From positions 64,001 through 128,000 of the IMG/VR virus record IMGVR_UViG_3300045988_160113: a stretch of DNA of 64,000 nucleotides; one strand, 5' to 3'. The stretch's first letter is position 1. Each line of letters opens with the position of its first letter. The notes under the pieces are model-generated. The model saw only the letters and a program-made list of their open reading frames with translations, was not told the origin of the DNA and made no database searches. Source of the stretch: a virus. Positions 1 through 64,000 of the stretch are shown here, in pieces. The translations under genes and the position numbers were made by a program.

Positions 1-31
1 TATTACTTATTCAGTTTATTGTTTTCTAAAA

Positions 32-292
32 TTACTTCTCTTCAGCGGCATCAGGATTGAAAGCCATACCATCCTCGGTAAGAGAAATGTACTTAACAAC
101 GACATCCTTGTCATCAGCACCCTTGATGTGCTCCTCAGTACGAACAGCATAGCCCTTCTTGCAGAGGCCAGTAACAGAACCAACAACAGTGGGGCCAGAA
201 ACACCAAGAGCATCAGCAATGTCCTTATTAGTTAGCTTGGAACCATAATTGTCCTTTAAGAAATCGAAAACACGGCGACTATTGATTGTCAT
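32..292 (-). CDS. small winged-helix/HTH DNA-binding protein
   Basis: 86 aa ORF; HTH-like segment TNKDIADALGVSGPTVVGSVTGLCKKGY; AAGGAG RBS upstream; preceded by three tandem promoter cassettes. Confidence 0.6.
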   Translation of the reverse strand: MTINSRRVFDFLKDNYGSKLTNKDIADALGVSGPTVVGSVTGLCKKGYAVRTEEHIKGADDKDVVVKYISLTEDGMAFNPDAAEEK

Positions 293-388
293 AACAAAAT
301 TCTCCTTTTAATAAATAAAATATATTTTTAATGGCACAAGCCACTAAATTCAATAAAATAATTTCTTTCCCTCTCACTTTCTGTAATT

Positions 389-417
389 AGTATACTAAAA
401 ATTTGAGAAAAAGTCAA
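389..417 (-). promoter_or_regulatory. sigma-70-like promoter cassette (proximal of three tandem copies)
   Basis: reverse strand: -35 TTGACT (412-417), 17-bp spacer, -10 TATACT (389-394), leader ACAGAAAGTGAGAGGGAAAG. Confidence 0.6.
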
Positions 418-478
418 ATTTCTTTCCAGTGAAATTTATAAGTTTTGCACTTATTTCTTTCTCATTCACTGTATAAAT

Positions 479-507
479 ATTATACCAAATATTTTCTGAA
501 AAGTCAA
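479..507 (-). promoter_or_regulatory. sigma-70-like promoter cassette (middle tandem copy)
   Basis: reverse strand: -35 TTGACT (502-507), 17-bp spacer, -10 TATAAT (479-484). Confidence 0.6.
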
Positions 508-590
508 ATTTTCACTTTACTCTTCAAGAAAAAATATAACATTTATAGAAAGCAATCAATTCATTTCTGTCTCTCTCACTTTCTATAAAT

Positions 591-619
591 ATTATACTCT
601 AAATTTTCTCAAAAGTCAA
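591..619 (-). promoter_or_regulatory. sigma-70-like promoter cassette (distal tandem copy)
   Basis: reverse strand: -35 TTGACT (614-619), 17-bp spacer, -10 TATAAT (591-596), leader ATTTATAGAAAGTGAGAGAG. Confidence 0.6.
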
Positions 620-635
620 AATTTCATTCTAACTT

Positions 636-3002
636 TTATAATGAGAAAATTGAAGTTGCTTTTTCTTTTGCTTTTAGTTTCAAAGCCTTTACACCCAAGC
701 TCCCCTTTGACGTCAAAGCTACTTCGCGCGTAGAAAATCTAATCGCCGCAGAACCAGTAGTTGTTACTACATCCATTACATCATTTGCTGGTAAAAAACC
801 AACAAGTTTTTCTCCGTCAGTAACTTTATGGAGTTTGGTTCCTTTTACATTACGATTAGTCTTGGGAAGTTCATCCAATGAAGTTCTACTAATCATGCCA
901 TCTGAAGTCAGTGATACGATTTCGTGCGCAGAACTATCAATAACCTGAGCGTCAATAACTTCATCACCATCATTGAGTTTTGCTCCTTGTACACCCATAG
1001 CAATTTTACCAACAGGGGTAATATCAGATGTACTAAATCGCATAAACTGACCACGCGTAGTAAGAAGTCCAATATCTTCATCATTTAGGAAAAGAATTTT
1101 ACAAAGATTATCACCCTCGCGCAGTTTGATAGCAGAAGAGCCACGGCCTGTTTTGGTTTTATATTCAGTAATTGCTGTCTTTTTTACAAGTCCATTCTTT
1201 GTAATGAAAACAATAAATTTACTTGCACTGGCTTTATCAAAGGAAGTGATATTTGTGATATACTCACCATCTGCTAACTTCAAAATTTCGCTCACATTGA
1301 TAAAAGCATTCAAAGGAAGGTCAGATAGAGGATAAGAATAACTCTTACCAAGATTAGAAAAAGCCATGAGAGTTCCAAGATTAGTATCTGCGACACTTTC
1401 AATGACACATTCACCATTTTGAAGTTTTATTTTACTTCCAGTTCCACCACGGCGCTGAGTAATTAGAGTGGACTGTTCGTTAGTATAAATGTTGCCATAA
1501 TTAGTCAGATTTACAATAAGAGACTTTTGTTCAATAACTTCACCCTCTTCATTAGACTGTAAATCCATAATTTGTGTTCTGCGCGCGTCTCCAAATTTGG
1601 TTACGACTTCACGAAGTCCATTTTCAATTTCTTTTTTGAGAAGAGTTTCATCATTTAGAATAGACTCAATGTGCGTGGCCTCTTTTTCAAGGTCGGCTTT
1701 TTCATTTTCAAGTTTGTTGATTTCAAGACGAGCAAGACGCGATAGCTTGATATCAAGAATTGCCTTGGCTTGTGCTTCATCAATAGAGAGTAAAGATTGA
1801 AGAGCCACATTCGCTGCGCGCGTATCAAAAGATTGTTTGATAGTGCGGACAACTTCATCAATCATATTGATTGCCTTGAGTAGACCATCAATAATATGAA
1901 GCCGCGCGCGAATTTTATTGAGATCAAATTCAAAACCACGGATATATACTGCGCGCTCATGGTCAAGATGAGATTGAAGAAGTTCCTTCCATGTAAAAAC
2001 TTTTGGATAGCGACCATTTTCAAGCATGGTCATATTGATAGTATAATGACTCTGTAGAGAAGTATTCTTATATAAATACTTCAATACTTTTTCTGGTGTT
2101 GCATGTTTAGTAAGATAAATTTTCAAATTACTTCTATAACCACTATTACCAGTCAAATCATTGAAACGCTCAATACCTGGATTTTCTTCACTCTCCAGAA
2201 TTTTTTCAAGTTGTTCACAAATTGTATTTGTATATACTCCAAAAGGAACTTCACTAACAATAAAACAACGCTCTTTTTGATTATATTCAAGAAGACTGCG
2301 AAGTTTACAAGCGAATCCTCTTCCATTGAGAAGTGATTCTTTTGTCTCTTTTGGATTGAGAATAATTGCTCCGGTAGCAAAATCAGGAAGAATAACAATA
2401 TCTTCTGCTGGAGTATCTGGTTCCCAAAGCAACTTGATAAGAACTTCATTGAGTTCTCTAATATTGAATTGAGGAACAGAACTTGCCATACCAACAGCAA
2501 TACCGCTACTACCATTTACAAGATTATAAAAACCCTTACTTGGTAAGACAGACGGATATTGAAGATTATCAGCGTAATTATCATGCCATTCCTCAATGGT
2601 ATTTTTCTGAATATCGGCAAATAAATAATTACAAGTTTCTGCTAATCTTGTAGATGTATAACGCTCTGCCGACCAACTACCAGAACTCATAAGTGTGCCT
2701 GAATTACCTTTTACTTCAGTAATAGGATATCTCATACTAAAGTTTTGTGCTGCGCGCATCATAATACCGACGCAAGAACTATCACCATGAATATAAAAAT
2801 CTTTCATAGCATCCCCCATAGGGGCATTAGTTTTTTCATAAGGTTTTTCATGGACATATTTATTACGCCACATGGAATAAAAGATTTGTCTAGCAGATGG
2901 TTTCAATAAATCACGAGAATCTACAAGTGCGCGAGACTGAAGAACTGCTCCACTATATTGAATAAAAGAATCTTTGATAATAGGAGTAAGATTTACTTCC
3001 AA
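636..3002 (-). CDS. type IIA DNA topoisomerase subunit A (GyrA/ParC-like)
   Basis: 788 aa; catalytic-Tyr motif AERYTSTRL; N-terminal LKPSARQIFYSM segment; repeated C-terminal beta-pinwheel-like segments. Confidence 0.9.
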   Translation of the reverse strand: MEVNLTPIIKDSFIQYSGAVLQSRALVDSRDLLKPSARQIFYSMWRNKYVHEKPYEKTNAPMGDAMKDFYIHGDSSCVGIMMRAAQNFSMRYPITEVKGNSGTLMSSGSWSAERYTSTRLAETCNYLFADIQKNTIEEWHDNYADNLQYPSVLPSKGFYNLVNGSSGIAVGMASSVPQFNIRELNEVLIKLLWEPDTPAEDIVILPDFATGAIILNPKETKESLLNGRGFACKLRSLLEYNQKERCFIVSEVPFGVYTNTICEQLEKILESEENPGIERFNDLTGNSGYRSNLKIYLTKHATPEKVLKYLYKNTSLQSHYTINMTMLENGRYPKVFTWKELLQSHLDHERAVYIRGFEFDLNKIRARLHIIDGLLKAINMIDEVVRTIKQSFDTRAANVALQSLLSIDEAQAKAILDIKLSRLARLEINKLENEKADLEKEATHIESILNDETLLKKEIENGLREVVTKFGDARRTQIMDLQSNEEGEVIEQKSLIVNLTNYGNIYTNEQSTLITQRRGGTGSKIKLQNGECVIESVADTNLGTLMAFSNLGKSYSYPLSDLPLNAFINVSEILKLADGEYITNITSFDKASASKFIVFITKNGLVKKTAITEYKTKTGRGSSAIKLREGDNLCKILFLNDEDIGLLTTRGQFMRFSTSDITPVGKIAMGVQGAKLNDGDEVIDAQVIDSSAHEIVSLTSDGMISRTSLDELPKTNRNVKGTKLHKVTDGEKLVGFLPANDVMDVVTTTGSAAIRFSTREVALTSKGSLGVKALKLKAKEKATSIFSL

Positions 3003-3078: not shown

Positions 3079-3465
3079 TTATTCTCTAATTAGTGAGAAA
3101 TCAACATTTTTGAAAATAAAATCTGTTCGAGGTTCAACATCTTTGCCCATAAGACTATAAAGCAAATCAAAACTAAGCTGGTCTGGTTTGAACACATCAA
3201 GTCTTTGATATTCTGGAGTGAACATGGATTCATGGGCCTCTATTGCTTCGAGTGAACCAAGTCCCTTCGCGCGATGAACTTCACCTTTGATTTTACCCTG
3301 CTTACGCGCAGCATCAAATTCTTCATCATTGAAATAATAAGAACGATTTTTACCTTGCTCGACAATAAAAAGTGGAGAACGAAGCCAACAAAGGCGACCT
3401 TCCTCGATAAACTGAGGGGCAAGTTTTAGTAAACAAGCCATAACAAGAAGCCCGATATGATAACC
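3079..3465 (-). CDS. type IIA topoisomerase subunit B, exon 2 (C-terminal part of Toprim and tail)
   Basis: Begins GYHIGLLVMACLL, continuing the Toprim motif TDADSD|G from exon 1 (compare GyrB [20 protein letters not shown]); the ORF track start at 3477 is a TTG inside the intron. Confidence 0.8.
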   Translation of the reverse strand, partial: GYHIGLLVMACLLKLAPQFIEEGRLCWLRSPLFIVEQGKNRSYYFNDEEFDAARKQGKIKGEVHRAKGLGSLEAIEAHESMFTPEYQRLDVFKPDQLSFDLLYSLMGKDVEPRTDFIFKNVDFSLIRE

Positions 3466-4507
3466 CACTTTACCCAATATTTCTATTGGAGTAGACTATA
3501 TGTTACTCATTATAAAATGAGGATGCTCTTTCCCACCTACGTATCAATAGTAGGGGTACTCCCCTTCCGGGGGATAGTCGTTACAGGCTTCATTTACTAA
3601 CCCAAGCCTTTTGTTTTTTGCTATATACTGGAAGGTTTTTATAGGTGCGACCCCACAGTATTTGTTGTATTGTATTATAATTACATCTATCTTTATAATC
3701 ATTATAAATACTTTTCGCATCTTCTGAGACGTATCTTTGACGCATTTCTAGAACTTCTTTATCAGTAAATTTAGCATTGGTAGATTTTTCACCATCTGTG
3801 GCATGATATTTATAAAAGTTTTTATTTTCTTCTGTATAAACTTCCATTTTTATATCTTGCCAAGTGGAGCCATCCCAAATACTAGCAAATCCATCAAAGC
3901 TAATTTTATCTTTGAATAATTCATAAACTTCTCGTCTACGAAAATGCTCATCATAACAATTTCTTATATAAGCGACGTCTTCATTTGAAAGTTTTGTTCT
4001 GCCATTATTTTCACCACGGCCATTTTTCCCTCCGGGATGACAGTTGTAGCCAAAACCTTTATATGTGTCATAATAAGCAATCCAATAAATTTCTCTTTCA
4101 TCTAGATTTTCAAGAGAACACTCTTCGATTATTTCAAAATCGAAAGATTCAATTCCATATTTATGAATTGCTATATCTATCGCTAAATCTGTTTTTGTTT
4201 TATGTTCAGAAAATCTTCTATCTATATTATTTGATTGCCCAATATAAGATTTTCCATTTTGTTTCTTTGTAATTTTATATATGCCTATCATTGCGGCACC
4301 TCCCACAATTTTAGGCTTTGGGTTAGCAAATGATTCCCACGGGATCTGCGTGTCCTTTTTGAAAAAAGGATTTAGCTTCTCTTACCACCATAACCTTACG
4401 GTTTAGTTGCCCGTTAGCCTCTATTTATAAGTAGAATATGTAAACCCTAATTATAAAAATTTGAGACCCGATTGATAATCGAAAAGCATCTACAGACAGT
4501 TTTACTT
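3466..4507 (-). mobile_element. group I intron (about 1042 nt) with internal GIY-YIG homing endonuclease ORF
   Basis: Interrupts the Toprim motif between ...ICTDADSD and GYHIG...; the 5' exon ends in U (GAU) and the intron ends in G (..AAAGUG). Structured flanks include the GNRA hairpin CCCC-GGAA-GGGG and several other stems. Confidence 0.75.
3590..4291 (-). CDS. GIY-YIG homing endonuclease (intron-encoded)
   Basis: MIGIYKITKKQNGKSYIGQSNNIDRRFSEHK ... EIYWIAYYDTYKGFGYN; ATG at 4291 has a GGGAGG RBS (the track start at 4306 is GTG). Confidence 0.85.
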   Translation of the reverse strand: MIGIYKITKKQNGKSYIGQSNNIDRRFSEHKTKTDLAIDIAIHKYGIESFDFEIIEECSLENLDEREIYWIAYYDTYKGFGYNCHPGGKNGRGENNGRTKLSNEDVAYIRNCYDEHFRRREVYELFKDKISFDGFASIWDGSTWQDIKMEVYTEENKNFYKYHATDGEKSTNAKFTDKEVLEMRQRYVSEDAKSIYNDYKDRCNYNTIQQILWGRTYKNLPVYSKKQKAWVSK

Positions 4508-5980
4508 ATCTGAATCCGCATCTGTACAAATTCCAAGACGTCCATATCTAAGTTTCTTACTGTCGTATTTTCCAGGAACAATATTCATCGCGCTGAGAAG
4601 AAGTTTGATTTCTTCATTCTGAAAAATCTTTTCATCATCATTAGAAAGGCAGTTGATAATTTTACCTTTGACACACATTAGACCAGTTTTATCGGTATTA
4701 CGCGCCTGTGCCATACCATTGAGTGCACTGTCTCCCTCACAGACAAGAAGAATAGCATCTTGTCCAAGGAATTCTGCATCCTTGAGTTTATCTGATGCGA
4801 ATACTTTACGCTTCTGATTTTTTTCAATATCTTTCTGCGCATTCAAGACCTGAACTCGCGCGCGTTCTGCGGCGGCTTCTGCTTTAGCAATTTTAGTGAG
4901 AATTTCAATAACTTTATCAAAATCCCCTCTGCGGCGCGCGTAAAAATCTTTTAGGCAACTTGAAATCGCAGTAGCAGTTGCTGTTCCTGCTTCTTTATTA
5001 GCCAAAGCAGTTTTTGCTTGGTTAGAAAATTGGCCAACATGGACTTTGACGGAAACAAAACCCTCAAGACAATCTCGGATTTGTTCTCCAATGAATTTTG
5101 TTTTTGCGAGATTATTGAAAGTTCTTGTTAGAGAGGTTTTGAAAGAACTAATAAAAGCTCCACCATCAGGCATATAAAGACCATTTGCATAACCCTTGAT
5201 ACTACCTTTTTTAGTTACCCATTGTAGAGCAAGTTCTACTTTGCAATCTTCATCTTCATAAAAATAACTAAAAGGTTTGCCGATAGCATTTTCACTTTTT
5301 AGACCATCAATAAGTCCATTTTCAGAGAAGAAAATTTGTTCTTTTCCATCAATAATAAGAATAATTTTTAGCCCTTTAGTAAAATAAGACATTTCACGAA
5401 GCATATTTTTTAGAGATTCTTCATCAATAAAAATATCTCCGTAAACGGCTTCATCTGGAACATAAGTAATAATAGTTCCAGTTTTAGAATCCTTTGCTTT
5501 TGAAATTTTTACATCTGAAGTTGGAGTGGCACCTTCTTCATTGCTTTCAAATCGTTGAAAATAAATATTTCCATCTCTATGGACTTCTACTTCAAGCCAC
5601 TTTGCTGTATGACAAACTACTTTATTACCCTCACCATTGATACCAACCGAACTAACATAAGACCCTTCCTTATGTTTTGCTCCTGAGTGCGGAAGTAGAA
5701 AAGCTGCGGTAAGAGAGTTCACTCCATCATTACGAACCGCGCAAGGAATTCCACGCATATTATCAGATACACGAATTTTTCGTTCTTTTGTAAAAAGTTC
5801 AATTTTTAGAAAAGGATTTTCTGGTTTATATACTTCAAATTCATCCTGAACATTGACAATAAGTTCACGCAAACCAAGATTGATTGCTTCTTGACGGTCT
5901 GCGCTAAGATACATTCCAATTTTTTCTCTAAATGCTCGACCTGGAGATAAAGTTGTCAAGTCATTAGCGCCGTATGTCAT
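4508..5980 (-). CDS. type IIA topoisomerase subunit B, exon 1 (ATPase, transducer, N-terminal Toprim)
   Basis: GHKL-like N-terminus (GLRELIVNVQDE, GINGEGNK); Toprim LLVCEGDSA and ICTDADSD; the in-frame stop at 4502-4504 lies in intron sequence. Confidence 0.85.
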
Positions 5981-10214: not shown

Positions 10215-10595
10215 TCAAGGCGGAGTCAAATAATCATTATGAAATTTTGATTTTACGAGATATTGTGGTCGAAATAAATCGTTGAAATTATAAATTGTAG
10301 AAAGTTCCCAATAAGGAATACGGTAGAGTTTGAAATTGCGCGCGAGACAATAAGAATTTTTCTTACGGTCTCGTTCACGCGCGGCAAGATAACCTTTATG
10401 GTTTGTAAATTGAGAGATTTGTTGATAATGCTGAATACCATCATATTCAATATGAATTTGATAATCTGGCAAATAAAAATCAAATCTCAATGGGACATTT
10501 TTCTTTCCATGTAAATCTGGATAAGTTTTTTCTCTTTCAAACTTCACGTGCGCTGCGCGCAGAAGAGAAACAATGTAATCTTCTCCTTTACTCAT
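10215..10595 (-). CDS. PD-(D/E)XK (Vsr/DUF559-like) endonuclease-like protein
   Basis: LRFDFYLPDYQIHIEYDGIQHY core; start reassigned to ATG 10595 (MSKGEDY), which overlaps the ligase stop as ATGA. Confidence 0.5.
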   Translation of the reverse strand: MSKGEDYIVSLLRAAHVKFEREKTYPDLHGKKNVPLRFDFYLPDYQIHIEYDGIQHYQQISQFTNHKGYLAARERDRKKNSYCLARNFKLYRIPYWELSTIYNFNDLFRPQYLVKSKFHNDYLTPP

Positions 10596-12648: not shown

Positions 12649-12726
12649 TTTCTTTTATATGAAAATGCTATACTTTTCTTTCAAAATATTTACTTCAAAA
12701 TAGAATAGAATTATAGGAGGCGCGCA

Positions 12727-14666: not shown

Positions 14667-14806
14667 ATTTTGACTTTTGAAGAAAAATATATTATTTCGC
14701 GCGGGCGCGCATTTTATTATAATGTATAAATAATGGATGGCTGTACAAATTTGATTTTTCCTGAAAATTTTGGTATAGTATTTATAGAAAGTGAGGGTGA
14801 TAAGAA

Positions 14807-15103
14807 ATGGCTAAGTTGTCTGACGAAAAAATTGCTGAAATCCAAAAGCGATATGCTGAATGTGGTGTCTATGCTCAAGTTGCCAGAGAACTTGGTGTAT
14901 CTCCTGCTACCGTCAAGAAGTATGTTTCTTCCTCTGACTCTGCGCGCAGTTCAAAAGTTAGTGTTCCTATTACCAAATTTGAGAGTGAACCTCTTCCTAT
15001 TGAACAAATTGTGTCCCCTTTGACTCATCAAGGTTGGCTAGACTGGTGTTCATTTACTGACGATGATTTGAAAAGTGTTGAAAGTCTGAAAGGAGAATTA
15101 TAA
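14807..15103 (+). CDS. HTH DNA-binding protein
   Basis: YAQVARELGVSPATVKKYV helix-turn-helix; first plus-strand gene after the divergent region. Confidence 0.5.
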   Translation: MAKLSDEKIAEIQKRYAECGVYAQVARELGVSPATVKKYVSSSDSARSSKVSVPITKFESEPLPIEQIVSPLTHQGWLDWCSFTDDDLKSVESLKGEL

Positions 15104-24772: not shown

Positions 24773-25522
24773 ATGGGAATTATTATGTTGAATAACAAGG
24801 TTCTGGTGAATCAGAATAAGATTGCGATGTATATACCTCCTTTTGAACCACCTGCTAAAGGTTCGATTGTAAAGATGAATTTGGATGGGACTGAAAGACA
24901 GTATAGAGTATTGAGTGTAAATGGAAACGTTTGTAAAGTATTAGGAATGTGGGATGACTTTGCAAGCAAATATAATGAAACAAGTACAACTACTACTTTC
25001 GGAAGCACTACTGCTCAGAAATACGAAGGTTCTACTTTAGATACCTATTTAAATACTACTTGGTATAATACATTAACTAGTGCTGCTAAGGCGGCTATTG
25101 TACCTGAGAATGTAGTACAGTATTGTTATAAATATTATGATGAACCAAATACTCCAAATACACCTACATATACATATCAATATCAGCATAACTGGTCTAA
25201 TTCAGATTATGAAAATGCCGATAATGTAGGCAATGTAACTGTTGGAGAACGTAACGTGTTTGCTTTAGATTTGAAGGATATTTTTGATTATATGGGAAAA
25301 GTGTGTATTACATCTGATGAACTAATGATTATGTTTTGGAATAGTACAACTAAAGTATCTAAATATCTATGGTTGCGGTCCTCTCTTGCCGACTATTCTT
25401 ACGGTGCGTGGATTGTGTCCGGTGACACTGGTAATTTGAGCTACACTGGTGTTGCTAATAGTTGTGTCGTGCGGCCCGCGCTTAATCTAGATATGTCCAA
25501 AATCCAGTACACCCTCGTGTGA
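24773..25522 (+). CDS. DGR target protein (receptor-binding candidate with C-terminal variable lectin-fold-like tail)
   Basis: C-terminal WLRSSLADYSYGAWIVSGDTGNLSYTGVANSCVVRPAL is encoded by the VR matching the TR. Confidence 0.85.
   Translation: MGIIMLNNKVLVNQNKIAMYIPPFEPPAKGSIVKMNLDGTERQYRVLSVNGNVCKVLGMWDDFASKYNETSTTTTFGSTTAQKYEGSTLDTYLNTTWYNTLTSAAKAAIVPENVVQYCYKYYDEPNTPNTPTYTYQYQHNWSNSDYENADNVGNVTVGERNVFALDLKDIFDYMGKVCITSDELMIMFWNSTTKVSKYLWLRSSLADYSYGAWIVSGDTGNLSYTGVANSCVVRPALNLDMSKIQYTLV
25373..25484 (+). repeat. DGR variable repeat (VR)
   Basis: Aligns without gaps to TR 26006-26117; all 19 mismatches lie at TR adenines; identical GC-rich 3' end GTCGTGCGGCCCGCG. Confidence 0.9.
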
Positions 25523-25529
25523 GCGGGTA

Positions 25530-38257: not shown

Positions 38258-38263
38258 TGCCAC

Positions 38264-38357: not shown

Positions 38358-39137
38358 ATGAAAAAGATTGGTATTTATAAAATTATAAATACGGTGAATG
38401 GGAAAATTTATGTTGGTCAGTCTATAAATATTTATGACAGATGGACACAGCATAAGTATAAAAGTATCTATTCTGAAGAATTGGGGTATAACTCCGCAAT
38501 TCATGCTGCAATGAGGAAATATGGTTTTGAAAATTTTGTATTTGAAATTATTGAAGAATGTGAACCGGAATTATTAGACGAAAGAGAAAGATATTGGATT
38601 GAAAAATTGAATTCTTTGACTCCAAATGGTTACAATATCATGCCTGGAGGACAGAAAAATAAAAGAATAATTCATAGATGCTGTGATTGTGGAGCGATAA
38701 TTAGCAAAGGTGCGAAAAGATGTGAAAAATGTGCTCATAAAAATCAAGAAAGAGCAAAAAATCCTTTTGAACCTTTGGAATTAGCAGAAGAAATTAAAGA
38801 AAAGGGCTTTGAAGCTTTGGGCAAAGAGTATGGGTATACAAATGGGCGCCCTATAAAAAAATGGTGTAAGCAACTTGGTTTACCAGTGTATAAAGAAGAA
38901 ATTATTAAATGGTATGATGAACAAATGGGGATAAAACCTCCTGAAAAAGTTCAAAAAAAGAATAAGGAAAGGCCAGTTTATAAAATAGATTTACAAACAG
39001 GAGAGATTTTAGAAGTTTTTTCAAGCATAGCAGAAGCAGCAAGAAGCATTGGAAAAAAGAAAGGTAACCATATTACAGAGGTTTGTAAAGGAAAATTTCT
39101 TTCTGCTTATGGCTATGGGTGGAAATATGTAGAATAA
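38358..39137 (+). CDS. GIY-YIG homing endonuclease
   Basis: IGIYKIINTVNGKIYVGQSINIYDRWTQHK...RYWIEKLNSLTPNGYN; zinc-ribbon CCDCG...CEKC; the stop abuts tRNA-Gly. Confidence 0.85.
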   Translation: MKKIGIYKIINTVNGKIYVGQSINIYDRWTQHKYKSIYSEELGYNSAIHAAMRKYGFENFVFEIIEECEPELLDERERYWIEKLNSLTPNGYNIMPGGQKNKRIIHRCCDCGAIISKGAKRCEKCAHKNQERAKNPFEPLELAEEIKEKGFEALGKEYGYTNGRPIKKWCKQLGLPVYKEEIIKWYDEQMGIKPPEKVQKKNKERPVYKIDLQTGEILEVFSSIAEAARSIGKKKGNHITEVCKGKFLSAYGYGWKYVE

Positions 39138-39139
39138 AT

Positions 39140-39213
39140 GTCGTATTGGTGTAATGCTAGCATAAGACACTTCCAATGTCTTGGTGGCAGTTGGAATCTG
39201 CTATACGACCCCA
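39140..39213 (+). tRNA. trnG: tRNA-Gly (UCC)
   Basis: GTCGTAT/ATACGAC; AGACA-CTTCCAA-TGTCT; encoded CCA; T-loop TTGGAAT. Confidence 0.75.
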
Positions 39214-39315
39214 TCGTCACACACTCCGTGACGAAAATTCTCTTTCCCCCCTTTCCTTTGCCCTGGCAGGCGGCATTATAGTCTGCTTTCCCCCTCAATA
39301 GTAATATATATATAT

Positions 39316-39392
39316 GGAGCAGTAACTCAGTTTGGTAGAGTAGCGGTCTTTTAAGCCGTCTGTCGGGTGTTCGAATCACCTCTGCTTCACCA
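39316..39392 (+). tRNA. trnK: tRNA-Lys (UUU)
   Basis: GGAGCAG/CTGCTTC; GCGGT-CTTTTAA-GCCGT; GGGTG-TTCGAAT-CACCT; CCA. Confidence 0.8.
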
Positions 39393-39395
39393 TAC

Positions 39396-39471
39396 GGGAG
39401 ATTAGCTCAGTTGGTAGAGCGCGTGACTGTTAATCACGATGGCGTAAGTTCGAACCTTACATTTCCCGCCA
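39396..39471 (+). tRNA. trnN: tRNA-Asn (GUU)
   Basis: GGGAGAT/ATTTCCC; CGTGA-CTGTTAA-TCACG; GTAAG-TTCGAAC-CTTAC; CCA. Confidence 0.85.
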
Positions 39472-39618
39472 AGGTTACCACTGAGCCGTAAAGTGGCGGG
39501 TGAAATTCTCGATAGCTGGGGTCTGAGTTTTACGCTATCTCTTTTGACATGGGGTTAAAGCGGTTAATCAGAATTAAATGAGGAAACAGTGTCATTAATC
39601 TCTACCAGCAAATTTTAT

Positions 39619-39695
39619 GGGACAATAGCTTATGAGGTCTGAGCACTGGTCTGAAAAACCAGAGGGTGATGGATCGTTACCATCTTGTCCCACCA
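39619..39695 (+). tRNA. trnF: tRNA-Phe (GAA)
   Basis: GGGACAA/TTGTCCC; CTGGT-CTGAAAA-ACCAG; GATGG-ATCGTTA-CCATC; CCA. Confidence 0.75.
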
Positions 39696-39724
39696 TTTGA
39701 AATTCATTATAAAGATGACGCTAT

Positions 39725-39799
39725 GGTGCGGTAGTTTAGTTGGTAAAACGGAGGACTTATAATCCTTTGTCTCTTGTTCAAACCAAGGGCGCACCACCA
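39725..39799 (+). tRNA. trnI: tRNA-Ile (UAU, AUA-reading)
   Basis: GGTGCGG/GCGCACC (one mismatch); GAGGA-CTTATAA-TCCTT; TCTTG-TTCAAAC-CAAGG; CCA. Confidence 0.75.
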
Positions 39800-43168: not shown

Positions 43169-44361
43169 CAATTAAAAACAATGAGGCTAACGGCAGTTGC
43201 ATCAACGAAAGTTGATTAGACGGGTCGGGGTTAGCAAAGAAAGGTTAACAGGTAGTGCAGCGGTAGGTAACAAATCCGTAAGTCGAAATGAGTTGGGAAA
43301 ACCAAATGATACGGCTTAGTCCTTCGTAAGAAGTTGAAGAGAGATTTTAGGTAAAAGGTAACAACTTTTAACTGCTCTTCGTAATTGACCATGAAACAGG
43401 GTCATAGCTACCACTCATTGTTTTTAGATGTTTTATCAAAGAAGACGAATGGTTGGTGAGTCTCAAAACAACCCAACTACCACATTACTAATCATCGCTA
43501 CTCGTGGTTAGTAAGTTGTTTTAGAAGTAGCAAACCTACGAGTATGGTAGGCGGCGCGGTAATAGTCGTAAAGGGTGAGGTAAAGCTGAATTATCATTTG
43601 AGGTAGTTTCTTTCTCCTAGCCAAAAACAGAAACCGGTGCGCAGTCGTGAAATGCGGGAATGGTAGATAAGCCTTAGTGTACTACTCATACGGTTGTGAG
43701 TTCTCCTATGTATCTTGAGAACTCTCGGCGGCGAATGCCTAAATCTCCCCGCCCGCGCGGTTATAGCGGCGTTTACCAAACTGTTATTCGATAAAATGGT
43801 TTGGAAGTGCGAGTAGTAACTTGGAATTACTCCCGAAAGCAACGGTTAGATTGCTCAACTTGCTAGACTCAAGTTGACAAATGGGAGGTGGCCCCTCCTA
43901 TGTCTCCCACGCAACACTAAGCGCGGGCGTATATGGGAAATAGTCAACCATATACTTATTGGGTTGAGAGTGTAATATTATACATAAAATCCCTCTGCGC
44001 GCAGAGTAAATCTGCGGTATCGTAGTAAAAACTCTACAAAAAAACTATATCAAAGGGACGACTCTAAACGAGGTAAGGGAAACAAAGTAAAGAGTACATT
44101 CTCTTAGGCTACTTTGGTATTATATGTGGTGTGGTTGAGGAGTATGGGCGACGATACACCGGAATGCGGAGTTAGCGACATACTGTGTAGATGGCGAGTC
44201 AACAGAGCGATATAGTTTATTTTGGCTTCCTTTCCGCTCTTGCGGGATGACTCTAGGATAGCGATACTACAAAGTAAAGGAGGACTGTGATTTATTCATA
44301 GCCCTCTTTTGCTTTACCAAAATTGTGTATTTTTAGGTAGAAAATTTTACTTAGTAATAAG

Positions 44362-44386
44362 AGGTTATAAAATTATAACCTTTTAT
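44362..44386 (+). terminator. intrinsic terminator closing the noncoding unit
   Basis: AGGTTATAA-TTATAACCT palindrome followed by TTTTAT. Confidence 0.55.
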
Positions 44387-44417
44387 AATATATTTTATAA
44401 AACAAGGAGGGAATAAT

Positions 44418-48391: not shown

Positions 48392-48621
48392 TGAAAGTAA
48401 GAACTATAAAGAAAGATAAACTATTGGAGTTAGTGAGCAATTATAATTGGGACCCGATTCCTAAAGAAGTAGTCGACCATTGGCTTTGTATTTGGGGTTT
48501 GACTATTGAGATTGAACCCGAGACGCGCGCTGAAGAAAATGAAGCAAAGAAAACAGACTGCGCGCAGAACGAAATAAAAGAACAAAAAAATAATGATAAT
48601 AAAGTAGAGGAAGAGCATTAG
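48391..48621 (+). CDS. hypothetical protein
   Basis: 76 aa, TAATG overlap. Confidence 0.55.
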   Translation: MKVRTIKKDKLLELVSNYNWDPIPKEVVDHWLCIWGLTIEIEPETRAEENEAKKTDCAQNEIKEQKNNDNKVEEEH

Positions 48622-49231: not shown

Positions 49232-50425
49232 ATGACTGTTCATGATACTTATGATAATCTAATGGAAGTCCAAAAGTTTATTCTTGACCACGAAAATTGG
49301 AAAGAACTCTTGGAAAATCCTCCTTACTGCCTGAAGATTACCGTAGAGGGTACTCTTATTATGTTCAATTATAGTCAGTTGGATTCTGATTTCTATAATC
49401 CTATCGTCAAGGAATGCCGTGGTTTGATTCTTGATAAAAATACTTACCGAGTTGTGTGTCGCGCGATGGATAAGTTTATGAATGCTGAGGAAGGTGCAAG
49501 TGACCTCAATAAAATCAACTGGTTTGATTTTCAGATTCAGACTAAAATTGATGGGTCTTTGATTCGTCTTTATCATTATAACGGCGAATGGCACGTGTCC
49601 ACCAGTGGTACGATTGATGCCTTCAATGCACCTCTCAATGTTGGCGGTTACAAGACTTTCGGTGATTTATTTGCGGCAGCACTATGGAAGTATATCAATC
49701 CTGAGTGTTTTTATGGAATGCTTGACCCTACTCATACTTATTGGTTTGAGTTGACTTCTCCGTATAACCGCGTTGTTATTCCTTATGATGAAATTGAATT
49801 GACTTTTCTTGGTTGGCGCGCAAATTATGCTCCCTATAAGGAAAAGTGGCCCTCTCAGTCAGTTGTCGCAGAGTATATTCCTATTGCTAGTAGGCTTCCT
49901 CGTCAATCTTATCAGTCTCTCCGCGCGCTGGCTGATTCATTGCCTTGGAATGAAGAGGGCTTTGTAATTTGTGATAATAATTTCCATCGTGTCAAGGTGA
50001 AGTCTCCTGCTTGGATTTCTGCGCACTATCTGCGGAATAATGGCATTCAGCCTGACCGTAGACTTATTGATGTTATCCTACATGGTGAGCAGGAAGAATT
50101 GCTTACTTATGCTCCTGAATATACCGACCGTCTACACGAACTTCAAGCAATGATGGAAGAGTATCACCTGCGCGCTGATGAACTTTTTAGTGTTTATTTG
50201 GAAATGTATATTGGTTTGGATTGTCCTGGCCGCGCATGGTTCGCAAAAACTGTAAAGAAGAATAAAGAAGATTGTGAACCGTATTTGTTTTGGGCTTTCA
50301 GTAAGATTTATGGCACTCCGCGCGGTGAAATGGATGATAATAAAGATTATTCTTTCAAGAGATATGAGAAGGAAAATCTTGATGCGCGCAAGTGGGTAAG
50401 ATTGTTGAAGTTGAAGGAGGAATAA
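49232..50425 (+). CDS. ATP-dependent RNA ligase (Rnl1-like)
   Basis: Motif I QTKIDGSLI (KxDGS); ECRGLILD upstream; EEGFVICD (motif IV-like); VKVKSP (motif V-like). Confidence 0.6.
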   Translation: MTVHDTYDNLMEVQKFILDHENWKELLENPPYCLKITVEGTLIMFNYSQLDSDFYNPIVKECRGLILDKNTYRVVCRAMDKFMNAEEGASDLNKINWFDFQIQTKIDGSLIRLYHYNGEWHVSTSGTIDAFNAPLNVGGYKTFGDLFAAALWKYINPECFYGMLDPTHTYWFELTSPYNRVVIPYDEIELTFLGWRANYAPYKEKWPSQSVVAEYIPIASRLPRQSYQSLRALADSLPWNEEGFVICDNNFHRVKVKSPAWISAHYLRNNGIQPDRRLIDVILHGEQEELLTYAPEYTDRLHELQAMMEEYHLRADELFSVYLEMYIGLDCPGRAWFAKTVKKNKEDCEPYLFWAFSKIYGTPRGEMDDNKDYSFKRYEKENLDARKWVRLLKLKEE

Positions 50426-50426
50426 T

Positions 50427-51257
50427 ATGACTCGTGAAGAGAGAATTATGAATGGCGTGAAAGACCATTGGGACGATGCACAGAGAAATGGTCAGATGCC
50501 ACAGTTTTCATTAGGAATTTTTCTTCAAGGAAGTCAGAACTATGGCCTTGATTATGAGGGTAGTGATATTGATACCAAGTTGATTACTCTTCCAACTTTC
50601 AAGAGCATTATTCATAATGATGCGCCTGTTAGCACAACTTTTGTAAGAGAGAATAATGAGCATACTGATTACAAAGATGTGAGATTGTATATTAAGAATT
50701 TCAAGAAACAGAATATCAATTTTTTGGAGATTTTATTTACAAATTTTGGGATTGTAAACAAGAGATTTGAGGAAGATTGGCTTAGTCTCCAGTTGAATAG
50801 AGAAAGGATTGCTCATTACAATCGTTTTCGCGCGCTGAAAGTGATGAAGGGAATGACGCTTGAGAAGTATGCGGCACTTGAACATCCGTATCCATCTAAG
50901 AAAGAGGTATTGGAGAAGTACTCATTCGACCCAAAACAACTTCACCATATCCTTCGTCTCAATGACTTCATTAGCCGTTATACCCAAGAAGAGTCTTTTG
51001 CAGATTGTCTTATTCCTACTAATCCAGAATTCCTTATCGAAGTAAAGAAAGGCAATGTATACGATTTGGACCGCGCGCGAGAAGTAGCCAAGAAAGTCGT
51101 TGCTAATACTGTTGAAATCGCTGATAAATTCTGCGAACTTATTCCTGACCGCGGCGACCCTATTGTTGATGAAATTCTTGACGAGTTTCTTTGCAATGTA
51201 ATGAAAGAGTCTCTTAGTTTGGAGTTCAGTAATTTTTACTGTTCAGAAATATATTGA
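50427..51257 (+). CDS. Pol-beta-superfamily nucleotidyltransferase
   Basis: FLQGSQNYGLDYEGSDIDTKL (GS-x9-13-DxD signature). Confidence 0.6.
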   Translation: MTREERIMNGVKDHWDDAQRNGQMPQFSLGIFLQGSQNYGLDYEGSDIDTKLITLPTFKSIIHNDAPVSTTFVRENNEHTDYKDVRLYIKNFKKQNINFLEILFTNFGIVNKRFEEDWLSLQLNRERIAHYNRFRALKVMKGMTLEKYAALEHPYPSKKEVLEKYSFDPKQLHHILRLNDFISRYTQEESFADCLIPTNPEFLIEVKKGNVYDLDRAREVAKKVVANTVEIADKFCELIPDRGDPIVDEILDEFLCNVMKESLSLEFSNFYCSEIY

Positions 51258-53865: not shown

Positions 53866-54214
53866 AGAAGTTCTCAAGTTACGTCGTAAAATTTGTAAAG
53901 GTTTTCGCGTGCTGAATAATAATCTTCGTGATGATTATCTTTGGCGTGGTAGATTTGAAGTACGTATGAAAGATTTCCAATATAGGAAATATTTCGATAA
54001 TAGTGGTTATCAAGTTTGGGTCTGCGCGCAGTTTATTGACCATAAGACTGGTCAAACTAAAGACCTGTGGGGAAATTATTTTGATTGGACTAGTGGTTGG
54101 AAAGTATTCGTAGCAATGAATGTTTTTATTGTTGAAGATTGCCATGTTTGGGAATATGATAAAGAAGACCCAAACTATCCAACTAATGATAAAACTGTGT
54201 ATAGGAGTAAATGA
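53855..54214 (+). CDS. hypothetical protein
   Basis: 119 aa. Confidence 0.55.
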   Translation: MKNKEVLKLRRKICKGFRVLNNNLRDDYLWRGRFEVRMKDFQYRKYFDNSGYQVWVCAQFIDHKTGQTKDLWGNYFDWTSGWKVFVAMNVFIVEDCHVWEYDKEDPNYPTNDKTVYRSK

Positions 54215-55550: not shown

Positions 55551-56112
55551 ATGGCAATCTGGATTACTTCAGATTGGCATTAGGCATTTTTGCCATGATA
55601 GAGAATTTCTTTATAAGCCACGCGGTTTTGATAATATTCAAGATATGAATCGTGCAATTATTCAGAGGCATAATAAACTGGTAAACTGGGATGATGATGT
55701 CTATACTCTTGGTGATTGTATGCTCAATAATAACGATGAGGGAAGAAGTTGCATTGCTCAGTTGAATGGACAAATTCATATTATTAGAGGAAACCACGAC
55801 AGTAATGGCCGTATGGAAATCTATCGTGGCCTTCATAATGTAGTTGAAGTGTGCGAAGGTAAATTCCTGCGCAATGGAAAATACCATTTCTATCTTTCTC
55901 ATTATCCTTGTCTTACGAGTAATTGGGATGAAGATAAACCTCTCAAGGCGCGCATGACGAATTTGTGTGGTCATAGTCATACTAAAGACCATTTTGCAGA
56001 CTGGGGCAAAGGTCTAATTTTTCATTGTGAAATGGATACAAATAATTGTGAACCCATTCTTCTTGATGATATTATCAAGAAAATTGAAATCAAGTTAGGA
56101 GAAAATAAATGA
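55551..56112 (+). pseudogene. calcineurin-like metallophosphoesterase with an internal frame change
   Basis: MAIWITSDWH (motif I, frame of 55551) hits TAG at 55581. The remainder, RHFCHDREFLYKPRGF...GDCM...RGNHDSN...CGHSH, continues in the +1 frame (track ORF 55645-56112). Confidence 0.6.
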
Positions 56113-56477
56113 ATACTGGAAAAATTATTGCTCTCGGTGCAGTGAGTGCTATTGCTATCAATGCGCTTGGTTATTTTGCGATGAATACCGGCATTGGCTA
56201 TAATATTATCGTATTTGGCTGTATTGCCATTGTGGAAGTTCTTGCTATTATTGCTTTTGTGAAGTGGATTTTTGCTCCGCGCGCGGAAGAAAAGATTACT
56301 TCTCGTGGTAAGCGCGCACCATCCAATGCTTTCAAAGATGGCGATGTGGCACTTTATAATTCCGATACTGGTGATTATGATGTGCTTAGTGATTACGAAG
56401 CGCCTGATATTGACCTAAAGGAAGCATATGATAACCTCGATAAGACACTTGAGAATTGTGATGTAAAGGAGAACTAA
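56109..56477 (+). CDS. membrane protein
   Basis: Two TM segments in the N-terminal half. Confidence 0.55.
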   Translation: MNTGKIIALGAVSAIAINALGYFAMNTGIGYNIIVFGCIAIVEVLAIIAFVKWIFAPRAEEKITSRGKRAPSNAFKDGDVALYNSDTGDYDVLSDYEAPDIDLKEAYDNLDKTLENCDVKEN

Positions 56478-56478
56478 A

Positions 56479-56982
56479 ATGCTTGTTGTTCTTGTTGGCC
56501 CTTCGTATAGTGGTAAGTCAACTGTATGTGAATTTTTCAAGAGATATTATAAGATGCAGGAACTTCCTATGTATGTTGTTTGTCCTGATGATATTCGTGA
56601 AGAACTTCTTGGTGATGCTAGCGACCAGTCAAATGGCAAGATGATTTTTGAGACTGCTTATGAAAGAGTAGACAAGGCACTAAATTCTTCTTTGAATACT
56701 GTTTTCTTTGATGCTACTTCGCTTACTCCTGCGCGCAGAAAGCCTCTTATTGAAATTGCGAAGAAACATAAAACGTGTTGCTTTGCCGTGGTTATGCCTA
56801 ACTTTACTGAAGAAGAACTCACTGCGCGCGCAGCAACTCGTGAACGTAAGGTTCCTTTAGATGTGGTCTACGCGCAGAAACAGAGAATGATTTATCCTAA
56901 TGTTGAAGAAGGCTTTGATTATACTATGGAGATTCCGAAGTCTTCATTGGATATTATGAAGGAGCGACTAAATGATTGTTAG
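56479..56982 (+). CDS. P-loop kinase (polynucleotide-kinase-like)
   Basis: MLVVLVGPSYSGKST Walker A at the N-terminus; about 167 aa. Confidence 0.55.
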   Translation: MLVVLVGPSYSGKSTVCEFFKRYYKMQELPMYVVCPDDIREELLGDASDQSNGKMIFETAYERVDKALNSSLNTVFFDATSLTPARRKPLIEIAKKHKTCCFAVVMPNFTEEELTARAATRERKVPLDVVYAQKQRMIYPNVEEGFDYTMEIPKSSLDIMKERLNDC

Positions 56983-59488: not shown

Positions 59489-59567
59489 CAGTAATGTGGT
59501 AACTACCATGCTCAACGCGCGAGAGTACCCGGAAGGTAGTTGACAGCCAGGAAAGACTGGCAGGCCT

Positions 59568-59636
59568 GGTCGATTAGTGTAACGGTAGCACGCCATCCTT
59601 TTATGGAGGAAGAGAGGTTCGACTCCTATGCGATCT
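59568..59636 (+). ncRNA. degenerate tRNA-like module (UUU-type loop)
   Basis: GTGT-AACGGTA-GCAC D arm; CCATC-CTTTTAT-GGAGG (one mismatch); AGAGG-TTCGACT-CCTAT; poor acceptor pairing; no CCA. Confidence 0.35.
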
Positions 59637-59745
59637 CAATTATTTATTAGGTAGTCATTACTCCATCGCGAGGAGCCTAAACAAGAGTAAAAGAATGACT
59701 GGCACTCTGGAAAGACGGAGAGACGTCTATAAAGAGGTAGTTGAT

Positions 59746-63214: not shown

Positions 63215-63426
63215 GTATGGATTGTGGGTATGGACATGGAGAATGTAAAGCTCCAGATACACAATGCCCTCATTGGCAAGGAACTTTTTGTGAGTTAGAC
63301 CAAGGACCGATTATGCGCGACTGTCACAAGTGTGTTTATGAAGGTGCTTATGGTGGTTGTCATGAAAGTCCACTTGGTTGTAAGAAATATAAACGTGATG
63401 CTCCTGATGGAGGGTATTATGGATAA
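63211..63426 (+). CDS. small Cys/His-rich protein
   Basis: 71 aa; multiple C/H clusters. Confidence 0.5.
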   Translation: MSMDCGYGHGECKAPDTQCPHWQGTFCELDQGPIMRDCHKCVYEGAYGGCHESPLGCKKYKRDAPDGGYYG

Positions 63427-63432
63427 TTTAGA

Positions 63433-63486
63433 GTTGCTAAAGTTTTGTTCTGCGCGCGGAGTGAAAGTTTAGCAACTTTCTTTTTA
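63433..63486 (+). terminator. intrinsic terminator with GCGCGC in the loop
   Basis: GTTGCTAAA...TTTAGCAAC followed by TTTCTTTTT. Confidence 0.65.
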
Positions 63487-63490
63487 TAAT

Positions 63491-63519
63491 TTGAAATTTT
63501 CAGAAATATATGGTATAAT
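63491..63519 (+). promoter_or_regulatory. promoter cassette
   Basis: TTGAAA, 17 bp, TGGTATAAT; leader ATATATAGAAAATGAGAGAGG. Confidence 0.65.
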
Positions 63520-63550
63520 ATATATAGAAAATGAGAGAGGGGAATTGATT

Positions 63551-63850
63551 ATGAAATATATTATTCGTGATACCTCTACTTATCCTTGGTTTTCGTTTTG
63601 TGTTTGTTCTACTGAATCTGATGCTGAGGAAATGGTACTTGCGCTGAGTGAAGAAGAACTTTACCAGGCTTGGTTTTCTTATACTCAGATAAAGGAAGAT
63701 GATGAACCTGATTTTTGGGAAAATATTAGGATTTATAAAGAGCGCTGTTTCGCGGCTGGTAATACAGTTATTTATAAGACCTTGTTTTGTTTAGCAATTT
63801 ATTGTGATACTCCCAATGGTTGGGACTACATGGAAATTGAGGAGGTTTGA
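63551..63850 (+). CDS. hypothetical protein
   Basis: ATG 63551 directly after the cassette leader. Confidence 0.55.
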   Translation: MKYIIRDTSTYPWFSFCVCSTESDAEEMVLALSEEELYQAWFSYTQIKEDDEPDFWENIRIYKERCFAAGNTVIYKTLFCLAIYCDTPNGWDYMEIEEV

Positions 63851-63852
63851 GT

Positions 63853-64000
63853 ATGAAATATGCAATTTACGCTGGTTTGGGTGGTAGTTTTGGTGGAGCT
63901 ACTTTTCAGTATGTAGATGATTTTAACACTGAAGAAGATGCTCTGGATACTGCATATTTGCTTGCAGTCCAGGAATACGAAAGTTATGAAGGTCTTCATG
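63853..64000 (+). CDS. hypothetical protein (5' fragment, runs off the window)
   Basis: ATG after GGAGG; open to the window end. Confidence 0.45.
   Translation, partial: MKYAIYAGLGGSFGGATFQYVDDFNTEEDALDTAYLLAVQEYESYEGLH

Follow-up and report, generated by a model that had tools for sequence, protein, structure and literature searches.

A hyper-abundant G/C-only palindrome of switching identity in a family of SPβ-like gut phages

The purpose of HIP1 (GCGATCGC), a highly iterated palindrome of cyanobacteria, has been open for 30 years. Chi and the DNA uptake sequences (USS/DUS) are likewise short words that are maintained at the DNA level, occur about once per kb in all reading frames, and are expected to be rarer in recently acquired DNA. 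Phages are a textbook case of palindrome avoidance. HIP1 is enriched 15–300 fold and is present at 0.3–2.7 copies per kb; its lineage variants are tied to methylases, it has palindromic extensions, its sites are conserved, and its spacing is periodic with periods of 10–90 kb (PMC4390886, PMC5861425). Hexamers of alternating G and C are normally suppressed in prokaryotes (PMC4060949). Here we describe a 64,000-nucleotide stretch of virus DNA (positions 64,001 to 128,000 of IMG/VR record IMGVR_UViG_3300045988_160113; hereafter the window) in which the alternating hexamers GCGCGC and CGCGCG, together called the motif, are hyper-abundant. The window belongs to an SPβ-like phage with a genome of ~136 kb and a Gram-positive host in the gut, and HIP1 is the closest known match to its motif. 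Our literature search found no report of a G/C-palindrome excess in phages. The excess is genuine and unusual, and it is a new form of a known but unexplained phenomenon.

There are 77 copies of GCGCGC and 59 copies of CGCGCG in the window by exact count. With measured base frequencies of 0.205 for G and 0.164 for C (37% G+C), independent bases predict 2.5 copies of each hexamer, and a first-order Markov model predicts 3.2 and 2.4 copies (z = 41 and z = 36, respectively). Each hexamer lies ~24-fold over its composition-based expectation, and the two are the top-ranked of all 4096 hexamers under the first-order model. Among the 36 classes of all-G/C hexamers that were compared, the best after the motif is only 7.5-fold enriched and is a one-base neighbour of it. 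When overlapping hexamers are merged into runs, defined in the window as uninterrupted alternating G/C tracts of at least six bases, an exact regular-expression count gives 89 separate runs of length 6–8, or 1.4 per kb. If a palindrome is called HIP-like when it is at least about 15-fold over composition expectation and present at roughly 0.3–3 copies per kb, then both hexamers fall within this range. An earlier note, made by reading the same sequence, had estimated about 39 runs in the first 19 kb, and exactly 39 start there; its figure of 90–100 for the window was slightly too high. It had taken G and C each to be 0.17–0.18, which does not agree with the measured values, and it had correctly expected only a handful of copies of each hexamer.

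The same note proposed a comparison with Markov models as a check, and the outcome is divided. A third-order model predicts 48.8 copies of GCGCGC (z = 4.0) and 40.4 copies of CGCGCG (z = 2.9), so that an excess remains, and a fourth-order model predicts 77.4 and 64.2 copies, which meets the counts. The fit of the high-order models is rejected as a refutation of the excess because these models condition on GCGC, CGCG and GCGCG, sub-words of the motif that are themselves 3–9 fold enriched (3.3–3.6 fold for the two tetramers). An assembly artefact is also rejected, because the same pattern is found in ENA, Logan and IMG/VR assemblies and in separate strains.

A total of 92 genes are called in the window (82% coding), located on the minus strand up to 14.6 kb and on the plus strand beyond, and 78 of the runs reside inside them. 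Shuffling synonymous codons within each gene yields only 15.8±3.4 runs (z = 18.5; maximum 25 in 500 shuffles), permutation of codon order yields 9.0±3.0, and a synonymous shuffle that bars any new avoided palindromic tetramer yields 18.0±4.2 (maximum 26). An artefact of codons or amino acids is refuted by these three nulls, and the last of them also rejects the excess as a side effect of palindrome avoidance. All reading frames are used (25/25/19 copies for GCGCGC and 25/17/13 for CGCGCG), and the motif is enriched 13-fold in noncoding DNA and 26-fold in coding DNA. The arginine codons of the window include AGA (257), CGT (213) and CGC (164). Since 65 of the 164 CGC codons and 63 of the 213 GCG codons lie within the motif, it is the motif that shapes codon usage and not the reverse. 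These results bear out the earlier view that the DNA word is selected, rather than a codon-pair bias, along with its observations that the motif occupies all three frames and that arginine elsewhere is mostly AGA or CGT; the codon-preserving shuffle that had been named as the refuting check falls far short of the runs seen. We consider it very probable that the motif is a signal maintained at the level of DNA.

The palindrome is carried past the core of the runs. Position –1 is T in 67% of cases and position –2 is C in 47%, and the other side mirrors this with A at +1 in 54% and G at +2 in 36%. This symmetric pattern is present in the minus-gene and plus-gene blocks alike. The preferred extended form is the 10-bp palindrome CTGCGCGCAG, of which there are 8 copies compared to 0.0–0.7 expected. 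The top octamer, CTGCGCGC, has 48 copies on both strands together (2.35 expected), and the split between 30 copies on the + strand (1.2 expected) and 18 copies of the reverse complement is judged not significant. No base preference is evident past ±2 around the runs of the window, and a dispersed repeat element, such as a repetitive extragenic palindrome (REP) or one resembling a miniature inverted-repeat transposable element (MITE), is rejected because similarity ends there.

Alternating tracts number 127, 52, 53, 25 and 11 at lengths of 4, 5, 6, 7 and 8 bases, respectively, and none is longer. Thus, the hexamer is favoured and tract length is capped. The tracts of exactly six bases comprise 35 of GCGCGC and 18 of CGCGCG. 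Dinucleotide slippage is rejected given the cap at 8 bases and the fact that strain differences are substitutions and not two-base length changes. The spacing of runs is Poisson-like (coefficient of variation 1.28; variance/mean 1.6 per 2 kb), with no regular spacing within the 64 kb. A single packaging signal, which had been suggested earlier, does not match such a Poisson-like spread at 1.4 runs per kb.

The motif is a family-wide trait whose identity switches among lineages, a feature that the earlier note did not see. Our survey comprised 67 loci found through the polymerase gene plus loci found through PhoH, for a total of ~100 related loci (designated by L numbers). Strains and relatives at 90–98% nucleotide identity share the excess, and in a sister clade with ~60% topoisomerase identity GCGCGC is 8–30 fold over expectation. 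Most lineages are dominated by GCGCGC/CGCGCG at 5–50 fold. In L023–L026, L048, L055 and L082, the enriched word is instead GCGGCCGC with its core CGGCCG (20–39 fold), and in L056, L057 and L085 it is CCGCGG (11–17 fold). Each favoured word is a well-known target of a type II enzyme (BssHII, NotI/EagI and SacII), and several loci, such as L048, carry two enriched palindromes. Both features fit exchangeable specificity modules. The CT...AG flank is confined to the clade of the window. Some relatives are without the trait. L010 has a topoisomerase II and no motif enrichment; L044 has no GCGC, little GGCC, and CGCG at 0.53 of expectation; L054 and L094 have GCGC, CGCG and GGCC all near zero. The cultured distant relatives SPβ and Enterocloster phage PMBT24 are also without the motif.

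Strain comparisons indicate how the sites are kept. The sister clade includes 14 strains with 89–95% identity and offers more power than the clade of the window. At its third codon positions, motif bases differ from the reference in 19% of strain comparisons, compared to 41% for other CpG, 26.5% for other G/C, and 12% for A/T (p = 3.6e-5). In addition, motif hexamers are intact in 64% of these strains compared to 44% for other GC-rich hexamers (p = 7e-4). On our reading, the motif is held against decay under AT-biased mutation, and biased repair would look similar. Conservation against decay is the same kind of evidence that has been used to argue for selection on HIP1 (PMC5861425). In the clade of the window, the rate of change in the motif is close to that of G/C positions elsewhere, and the differences are mostly CpG transitions. 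A hypermutable CpG inside the motif is not seen, as the transition rate is 4.1% in the motif and 5.5% at other CpG. At greater distances the sites turn over. The topoisomerase gene, compared at 64% nucleotide identity, shares only one of six motif sites, and some sites arose with conservative amino acid changes, such as Lys-Ser to Arg-Ala in this same gene. An apparent burst of substitution that created the site at 11506 belongs to a locally divergent, recombinant segment.

The motif exists alongside an extreme purge of palindromes: those of 4 and 6 bases are, with few exceptions, depleted in the window, and 11 six-base palindromes are entirely missing. The observed and expected counts are 16 and 246 for GATC (0.06 of expectation), 54 and 632 for TTAA (0.09), 41 and 186 for CTAG (0.22), 82 and 282 for TGCA (0.29), and 83 and 259 for AGCT (0.32). 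Even GCGC is depleted, relative to its own frequency, when flanked as AGCGCT or GGCGCC. This purge indicates that the phage is under heavy restriction pressure, although GCGC and CGCG are enriched. The earlier note was correct to regard the enrichment as the opposite of normal palindrome avoidance, because the two trends are present in the same window. The purged sets differ among relatives: L054 and L094 are without GCGC, CGCG and GGCC, and L023–L026 do not avoid GATC or TTAA. The set of purged palindromes amounts to a fingerprint of the restriction systems of the host, and the list for the window (GATC, TTAA, TGCA, AGCT and CTAG) could help to name that host.

The likeness to HIP1 extends to magnitude, density, occurrence in all frames and between genes, palindromic extension, and common one-off variants. 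Both systems have lineage-specific palindromes (GGCGCC, GCsGC and rCCGGy in cyanobacteria; GCGCGC, GCGGCCGC and CCGCGG in the phages), and both have sites that are more conserved than control words, which for the phage motif holds in the 14-strain clade and is not significant in the window's own clade. There are also clear differences. The phage motif belongs to a phage family of Gram-positive gut bacteria and not to a cellular chromosome, its core is without GATC or any A/T, and two hexamer phases are enriched. In addition, no cognate methylase was found in the phage DNA covered, no periodic spacing is apparent within 64 kb, a length too short to reveal the periods of HIP1, and the motif coexists with the purge described above.

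We tentatively favour, as the best overall explanation, a lineage-specific hyper-abundant palindrome that is kept at the DNA level and read by a symmetric enzyme. A force acting on DNA and not on proteins would keep the motif in the phage backbone. The words would be the recognition sites of a two-fold-symmetric, sequence-specific enzyme with a specificity like that of restriction-modification systems (BssHII-, NotI- or SacII-like), and this enzyme would most plausibly be a cytosine methylation or repair-type system of either the phage or its host. Perhaps the sites are dense because the DNA must carry a mark within ~1 kb of any point. AT-biased mutation would erode the sites, and selection or repair bias would restore them. 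The enzyme or methylation step, which is argued by analogy and from the resemblance of the words to restriction sites, is doubtful when judged separately. The earlier proposal that the motif is modified or nicked by an enzyme of the phage is the most attractive of its ideas; it is unproven, given that the only methylase found is of the adenine type and is also present in a motif-poor relative. As a whole, the interpretation in that note is partly supported.

Several observations weigh against a symmetric enzyme as the reader of the motif. Each of the two phases is over-represented in exact runs of its own (the 35 and 18 noted above), which a single six-base reader does not predict. There is no significant drop of substitution inside the motif in strain comparisons within the window's own clade. 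L054 and L094 exist with no GCGC or CGCG at all. Words in which T replaces C (GTGCGC/GCGCAC, GCGTGC/GCACGC and CGTGCG/CGCACG), which very-short-patch (VSP) repair would remove, are not depleted and occur at 2–2.8 fold over expectation. Moreover, the function of HIP1 is itself unsettled, and therefore the analogy supplies no mechanism.

The search for a cognate enzyme adds further points of this kind. It covered 84 of the ~136 kb of the genome, corresponding to –10 to +74 kb in window coordinates. Pfam marks no cytosine-5 methylase along this region, and in 67 relatives none is present in the 10 kb on either side of the polymerase gene. Motif scans for cytosine-5 methylases in ~100 loci also found none. 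In SPβ, the methylase gene mtbP is located 2.9 kb beyond the polymerase gene, a position whose equivalent is covered in the 67 relatives, and tblastn with mtbP found no homologue in the window or in any locus (E > 1). No Vsr-like gene was seen in the loci scanned. SPβ, of a group of self-methylating Bacillus phages, resembles the phage of the window in the content and order of its replication module and in that G/C-only sites are spared from avoidance; it differs in carrying mtbP, which has a homologue in no surveyed locus. Its target we take to be GGCC (multispecific GGCC/GCNGC), and SPβ has 40 copies of GGCC compared to 56 expected (0.7). Thus, protection by a methylase alone is insufficient to enrich its sites.

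The methylase that was found is a 268-residue gamma-class amino-methyltransferase (L019:18772-19578), encoded ~10 kb to the right of the window and with no Pfam assignment on record. It has motif I as IIEPSxGxGxF and motif IV as LVIGNPPFG, with weak matches to Eco57I-type and Alw26I-type methylases. As an adenine-type enzyme it has no target in an all-G/C core, and L031, a relative without a strong motif, has it too. The gene has hundreds of homologues in the phage family at differing genomic places, and it looks mobile judging from this distribution. Other relatives carry different methylases of the NPPF, DPPY and SPPY types near the polymerase gene.

A more specific proposal, which we consider unlikely, is that the palindrome is a switchable 'self-mark'. 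Each lineage would saturate its backbone with one or two rare-cutter-like palindromes (GCGCGC, GCGGCCGC or CCGCGG) matched to an enzyme with exchangeable specificity. If true, the mark could serve to discriminate phage from host DNA, to direct repair or replication restart, or to block defence nucleases, and it would be a tractable phage counterpart of the unsolved HIP1.

The alternative that survives best is that the sites are idle products of a repair bias. Either VSP-like T:G correction coupled to a GCGC/CGCG cytosine methylase of host or phage or biased gene conversion during co-infection would convert near-matches to the motif. This process would explain the deep turnover in the topoisomerase gene, the predominance of CpG transitions between strains, the lack of significant protection in the window's own clade, and a Poisson-like distribution with no positional logic, and the reduced third-position change in the 14-strain clade would follow from repair too. 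The precedent is Dcm/Vsr of Escherichia coli, which has a small effect on CCWGG-related words and depletes their T-containing neighbours. It shows that sequence-specific repair bias can make the target word of a methylase more frequent in all frames. However, the precedent is far below the 24-fold excess of the phage motif, whose T-for-C neighbours are enriched and not depleted, which causes us to reject a VSP signature. Furthermore, neither a Vsr-like nor a cytosine-5 methylase gene was seen in the scanned loci, and some sites were created by replacements that change amino acids (Lys-Ser to Arg-Ala). An idle repair product is thus an improbable source of the motif, albeit the least improbable of the alternatives.

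Another possibility is that stable G/C palindromes are favoured for physical reasons, as Z-DNA, cruciforms or duplex clamps, or as sites for the topoisomerase II of the phage. Enrichment of both hexamer phases speaks for such an element, and, by eye, the enrichment of all-G/C hexamers appears to rise with the number of CG and GC steps and to fall with GG/CC steps. In addition, the whole family has a two-subunit topoisomerase II, and the motif-less SPβ (49 kb examined) and PMBT24 (from its annotation) are without a topoisomerase gene. L010 breaks this association by having topoisomerase II yet no enrichment. Alternating runs of 8 bases are too short for Z-DNA, and no run of the window exceeds this length. 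Neighbour words gain no extra enrichment from keeping the purine-pyrimidine alternation, and the use of the non-alternating GCGGCCGC and CCGCGG by relatives also argues against Z-DNA, which the earlier note had listed among its speculative roles. The jump from 7.5- to 24-fold for the exact word, together with the clade-specific CT...AG flank, points to base-specific reading. We therefore regard a structural element as quite unlikely.

The motif might also act like Chi, with the word or its half GCGCG modulating host AddAB/RecBCD or phage recombination and the palindrome working from either end. The density near 1 per kb is in keeping with this role, and the Chi words of low-G+C Gram-positive bacteria are short and G/C-rich (GCGCGTG in Lactococcus, AGCGG in Bacillus subtilis). 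Chi and the uptake sequences are asymmetric words of cellular genomes, with Chi being strand-oriented, and they have known readers (RecBCD/AddAB or uptake receptors), whereas the phage motif is a perfect palindrome with symmetric flanks and no orientation. Exact five-base runs are only ~2-fold enriched by a rough estimate. Mosaic breakpoints are no nearer to motifs than to random positions in the window's clade (P = 0.14–0.59) or in the 14-strain clade (P = 0.23–0.48), in a test of low power. This disfavours a recombination hotspot and gives no support to the recombination signal suggested earlier, within the limits of that power. A recent preprint (10.1101/2024.09.10.611283) ties HIP1 to homology-dependent transformation, which would be in line with a Chi-like role. 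Even so, we judge this role to be very unlikely for the motif. The strand orientation expected of Chi is seen with another word, GCGGC.

The word GCGGC is enriched on the + strand alone regardless of gene direction, and its complement is at expectation. There are 12 copies in the minus-gene block compared to 3.8±1.6 expected, and 51 copies in the plus-gene block compared to 28.9±4.1. Longer forms include CTGCGGC and TGCGGCA. This strand pattern is the signature of an oriented word, either Chi-like or replication-polarised.

Less probable still is a signal at the RNA level, in which a palindrome that reads the same in messenger RNA from either strand would serve, as CUGCGCGCAG, as a site for an RNA-binding protein or an RNase. 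Being a palindrome, the motif is necessarily in the sense strand whichever way a gene points, and one copy caps the terminator-like hairpin described below. In the plus-strand gene block, at least one copy, at 28087 (context aaggagGCGCGCatg), is flanked by a sequence resembling a ribosome-binding site and by a start codon. Set against these cases are the 13-fold enrichment in noncoding DNA, which includes the divergent promoter region, and the lack of positional preference along genes except for a mild mid-gene excess. Xu et al. saw no RNA role for HIP1 (PMC5861425). Finally, that the excess is a mere by-product of coding, arising from codon usage, Ala-Arg pairs, amino acid composition or a compensating effect of the palindrome purge with no pressure on the word, is barely credible: GCG and CGC are fairly common codons and Markov models of third and fourth order account for the count largely or fully, yet the codon-aware shuffles never exceed 26 runs and the three-frame usage, the noncoding enrichment and the motif-driven codon usage all oppose it.

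A phage family that purges almost all short palindromes accumulates one G/C-only palindrome until it is as dense as HIP1. Gut metagenomes contain related genomes by the thousand, with more than 5,000 polymerase homologues marking the family, and their natural motif switches (GCGCGC, GCGGCCGC, CCGCGG or none) provide a comparative handle by which the responsible gene can be sought through co-variation. The motif set is also a sharp lineage marker for the family, and its modification state is readable from long-read data.

The 89 runs of the window start at positions 725, 1581, 1816, 1903, 1951, 2752, 3268, 4857, 4934, 7527, 8480, 8963, 9072, 9856, 10338, 10378, 10555, 11241, 11506, 12720, 13521, 13555, 14698, 14705, 14942, 15220, 15576, 15667, 16200, 16477, 17887, 17947, 18202, 18244, 18307, 18410, 18538, 18577, 18775, 19507, 24075, 24149, 26784, 27180, 28087, 29617, 29881, 31328, 31521, 32402, 32444, 33701, 34922, 37463, 41737, 43754, 43997, 46711, 46924, 47119, 47303, 48353, 48524, 48560, 48850, 49460, 49816, 49922, 50170, 50319, 50384, 50829, 51072, 51615, 52268, 52455, 52900, 54024, 54504, 55071, 55461, 55948, 56278, 56312, 56731, 56824, 59516, 62837 and 63452. 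Local density is high, at ~3 runs per kb, in the region of 46.7–56.8 kb. The fibre and retroelement block at 19.4–28.0 kb has only 5 runs in 8.6 kb; the motif is sparse there, as had been claimed earlier for the fibre block at 19–27 kb, and is still ~12-fold over local expectation. A foreign-looking segment with 58% G+C at 28–30 kb holds 4 motif hexamers (2 GCGCGC and 2 CGCGCG) compared to ~2.4 from a rough composition estimate. The motif is near chance in this segment, which serves as an internal control. Eight ORFs (open reading frames) resembling homing endonucleases (5.9 kb in total) are free of runs; given the rate in the backbone this has P = 4e-5, but correction for their 29% G+C gives P = 0.19, which is not significant.

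The eight copies of CTGCGCGCAG are located at 10553–10562, 14940–14949, 32400–32409, 37461–37470 (intergenic), 43995, 48558–48567, 54022–54031 (intergenic) and 56729–56738. The copy at 43995 forms part of the 14-bp palindrome CTCTGCGCGCAGAG (43993–44006), inside a large noncoding region at 43216–44417. The positions of these nine palindromes had been given exactly by the earlier note. It had also pointed out an adjacent pair of copies, CGCGCG G GCGCGC (14698–14710), in the intergenic DNA from which the minus-strand and plus-strand gene blocks diverge. Another noncoding GCGCGC (12720–12725) has the context ggagGCGCGCaatg, which on the + strand resembles a ribosome-binding site followed by ATG, much like that of the copy at 28087; the surrounding genes are on the minus strand, and a role for this arrangement is not established.

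A strong hairpin on the + strand (63430–63488; –22.4 kcal/mol, z = –3.7) has the motif at its apex (63452–63458) and is followed by a T-run. An intrinsic terminator is a plausible identity based on this predicted fold. The earlier placement of a copy in a terminator loop thus agrees with the apex position and the T-run, but a simple terminator scan did not flag the hairpin. Within the large noncoding region there is also a RAGATH-33 RNA (43186–43313; Rfam RF03102; 129.9 bits compared to a gathering score of 120.4), located ~700 bases upstream of CTCTGCGCGCAGAG.

The ~136-kb genome holding the window was assembled independently in several gut metagenomes, one assembly being the 135,895-bp scaffold_80 of HEQI17-1_SAMEA4431944 (ENA ERZ28575524), and a phage collection search found no close relative among deposited phages. 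Directly to the left of the window is an SPβ-like replication module encoding YorF, a Sak4-like YorG ATPase, YorH, a DnaB-like helicase, a primase-like protein, a RecJ-like exonuclease and PolIII alpha, with the same gene order as in SPβ. The genome also encodes a two-subunit topoisomerase II, a ligase, an RNA ligase, eight tRNAs and many homing endonucleases. A lysin with CHAP and PG_binding_1 domains implies a Gram-positive host. Searching for the host with this lysin in genome contigs gave only a match to a mis-binned 2.7-kb contig, and a search of a plasmid collection gave only cellular gyrA at 33% identity.

A complete diversity-generating retroelement is present at 24773–27193, with its reverse transcriptase ORF at 26261–27193. 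The template repeat is at 26006–26117 and the variable repeat is at 25373–25484, in the 3′ end of ORF 24773–25522 (DUF6273), and all mismatches between these repeats sit on template adenines. An island with 58.6% G+C (28000–30100) in this 37% G+C genome has ORFs in which CBM_5_12 and DUF6273 domains are present. At ~28967 three assemblies made independently are interrupted; this position may thus be hypervariable or repeated, and might be another target of a retroelement.

There are at least eight endonuclease-like ORFs in the window, and ORFs of homing endonucleases break up essential genes. One such gene encodes the GyrB-like subunit of topoisomerase (3079–5980), which is interrupted around a GIY-YIG ORF at 3590–4306. 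PolIII alpha is also split by a GIY-YIG ORF (L015:17501-20261), and is intact, with 1345–1346 residues, in strains L016 and L028.

The eight tRNA genes (36280–39799 and 59567–59637) are for Leu-CAA, Trp, Gly-UCC, two Lys-UUU, Asn, Phe and Ile-UAU. Most form one cluster, in which a GIY-YIG gene and small ORFs lie among the tRNA genes. A likely RNA-repair set is located at 49232–51257 and 55645–56982. It includes a T4 Rnl1-type RNA ligase and a KTI12/AAA_33 kinase. The ORF adjoining the ligase has a GS...DxD signature that appears nucleotidyltransferase-like by eye and has no Pfam match, and a further ORF appears metallophosphatase-like by eye.

In a relative with 76% polymerase identity (L029:15338-24008), the region downstream of the polymerase gene encodes an anaerobic ribonucleotide reductase, a dUTPase, a nucleoside deoxyribosyltransferase-like protein, a Bmp nucleoside-binding lipoprotein and a xanthine/uracil permease. 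Such a nucleotide-salvage block is unusual in a phage and points to an anaerobic host.

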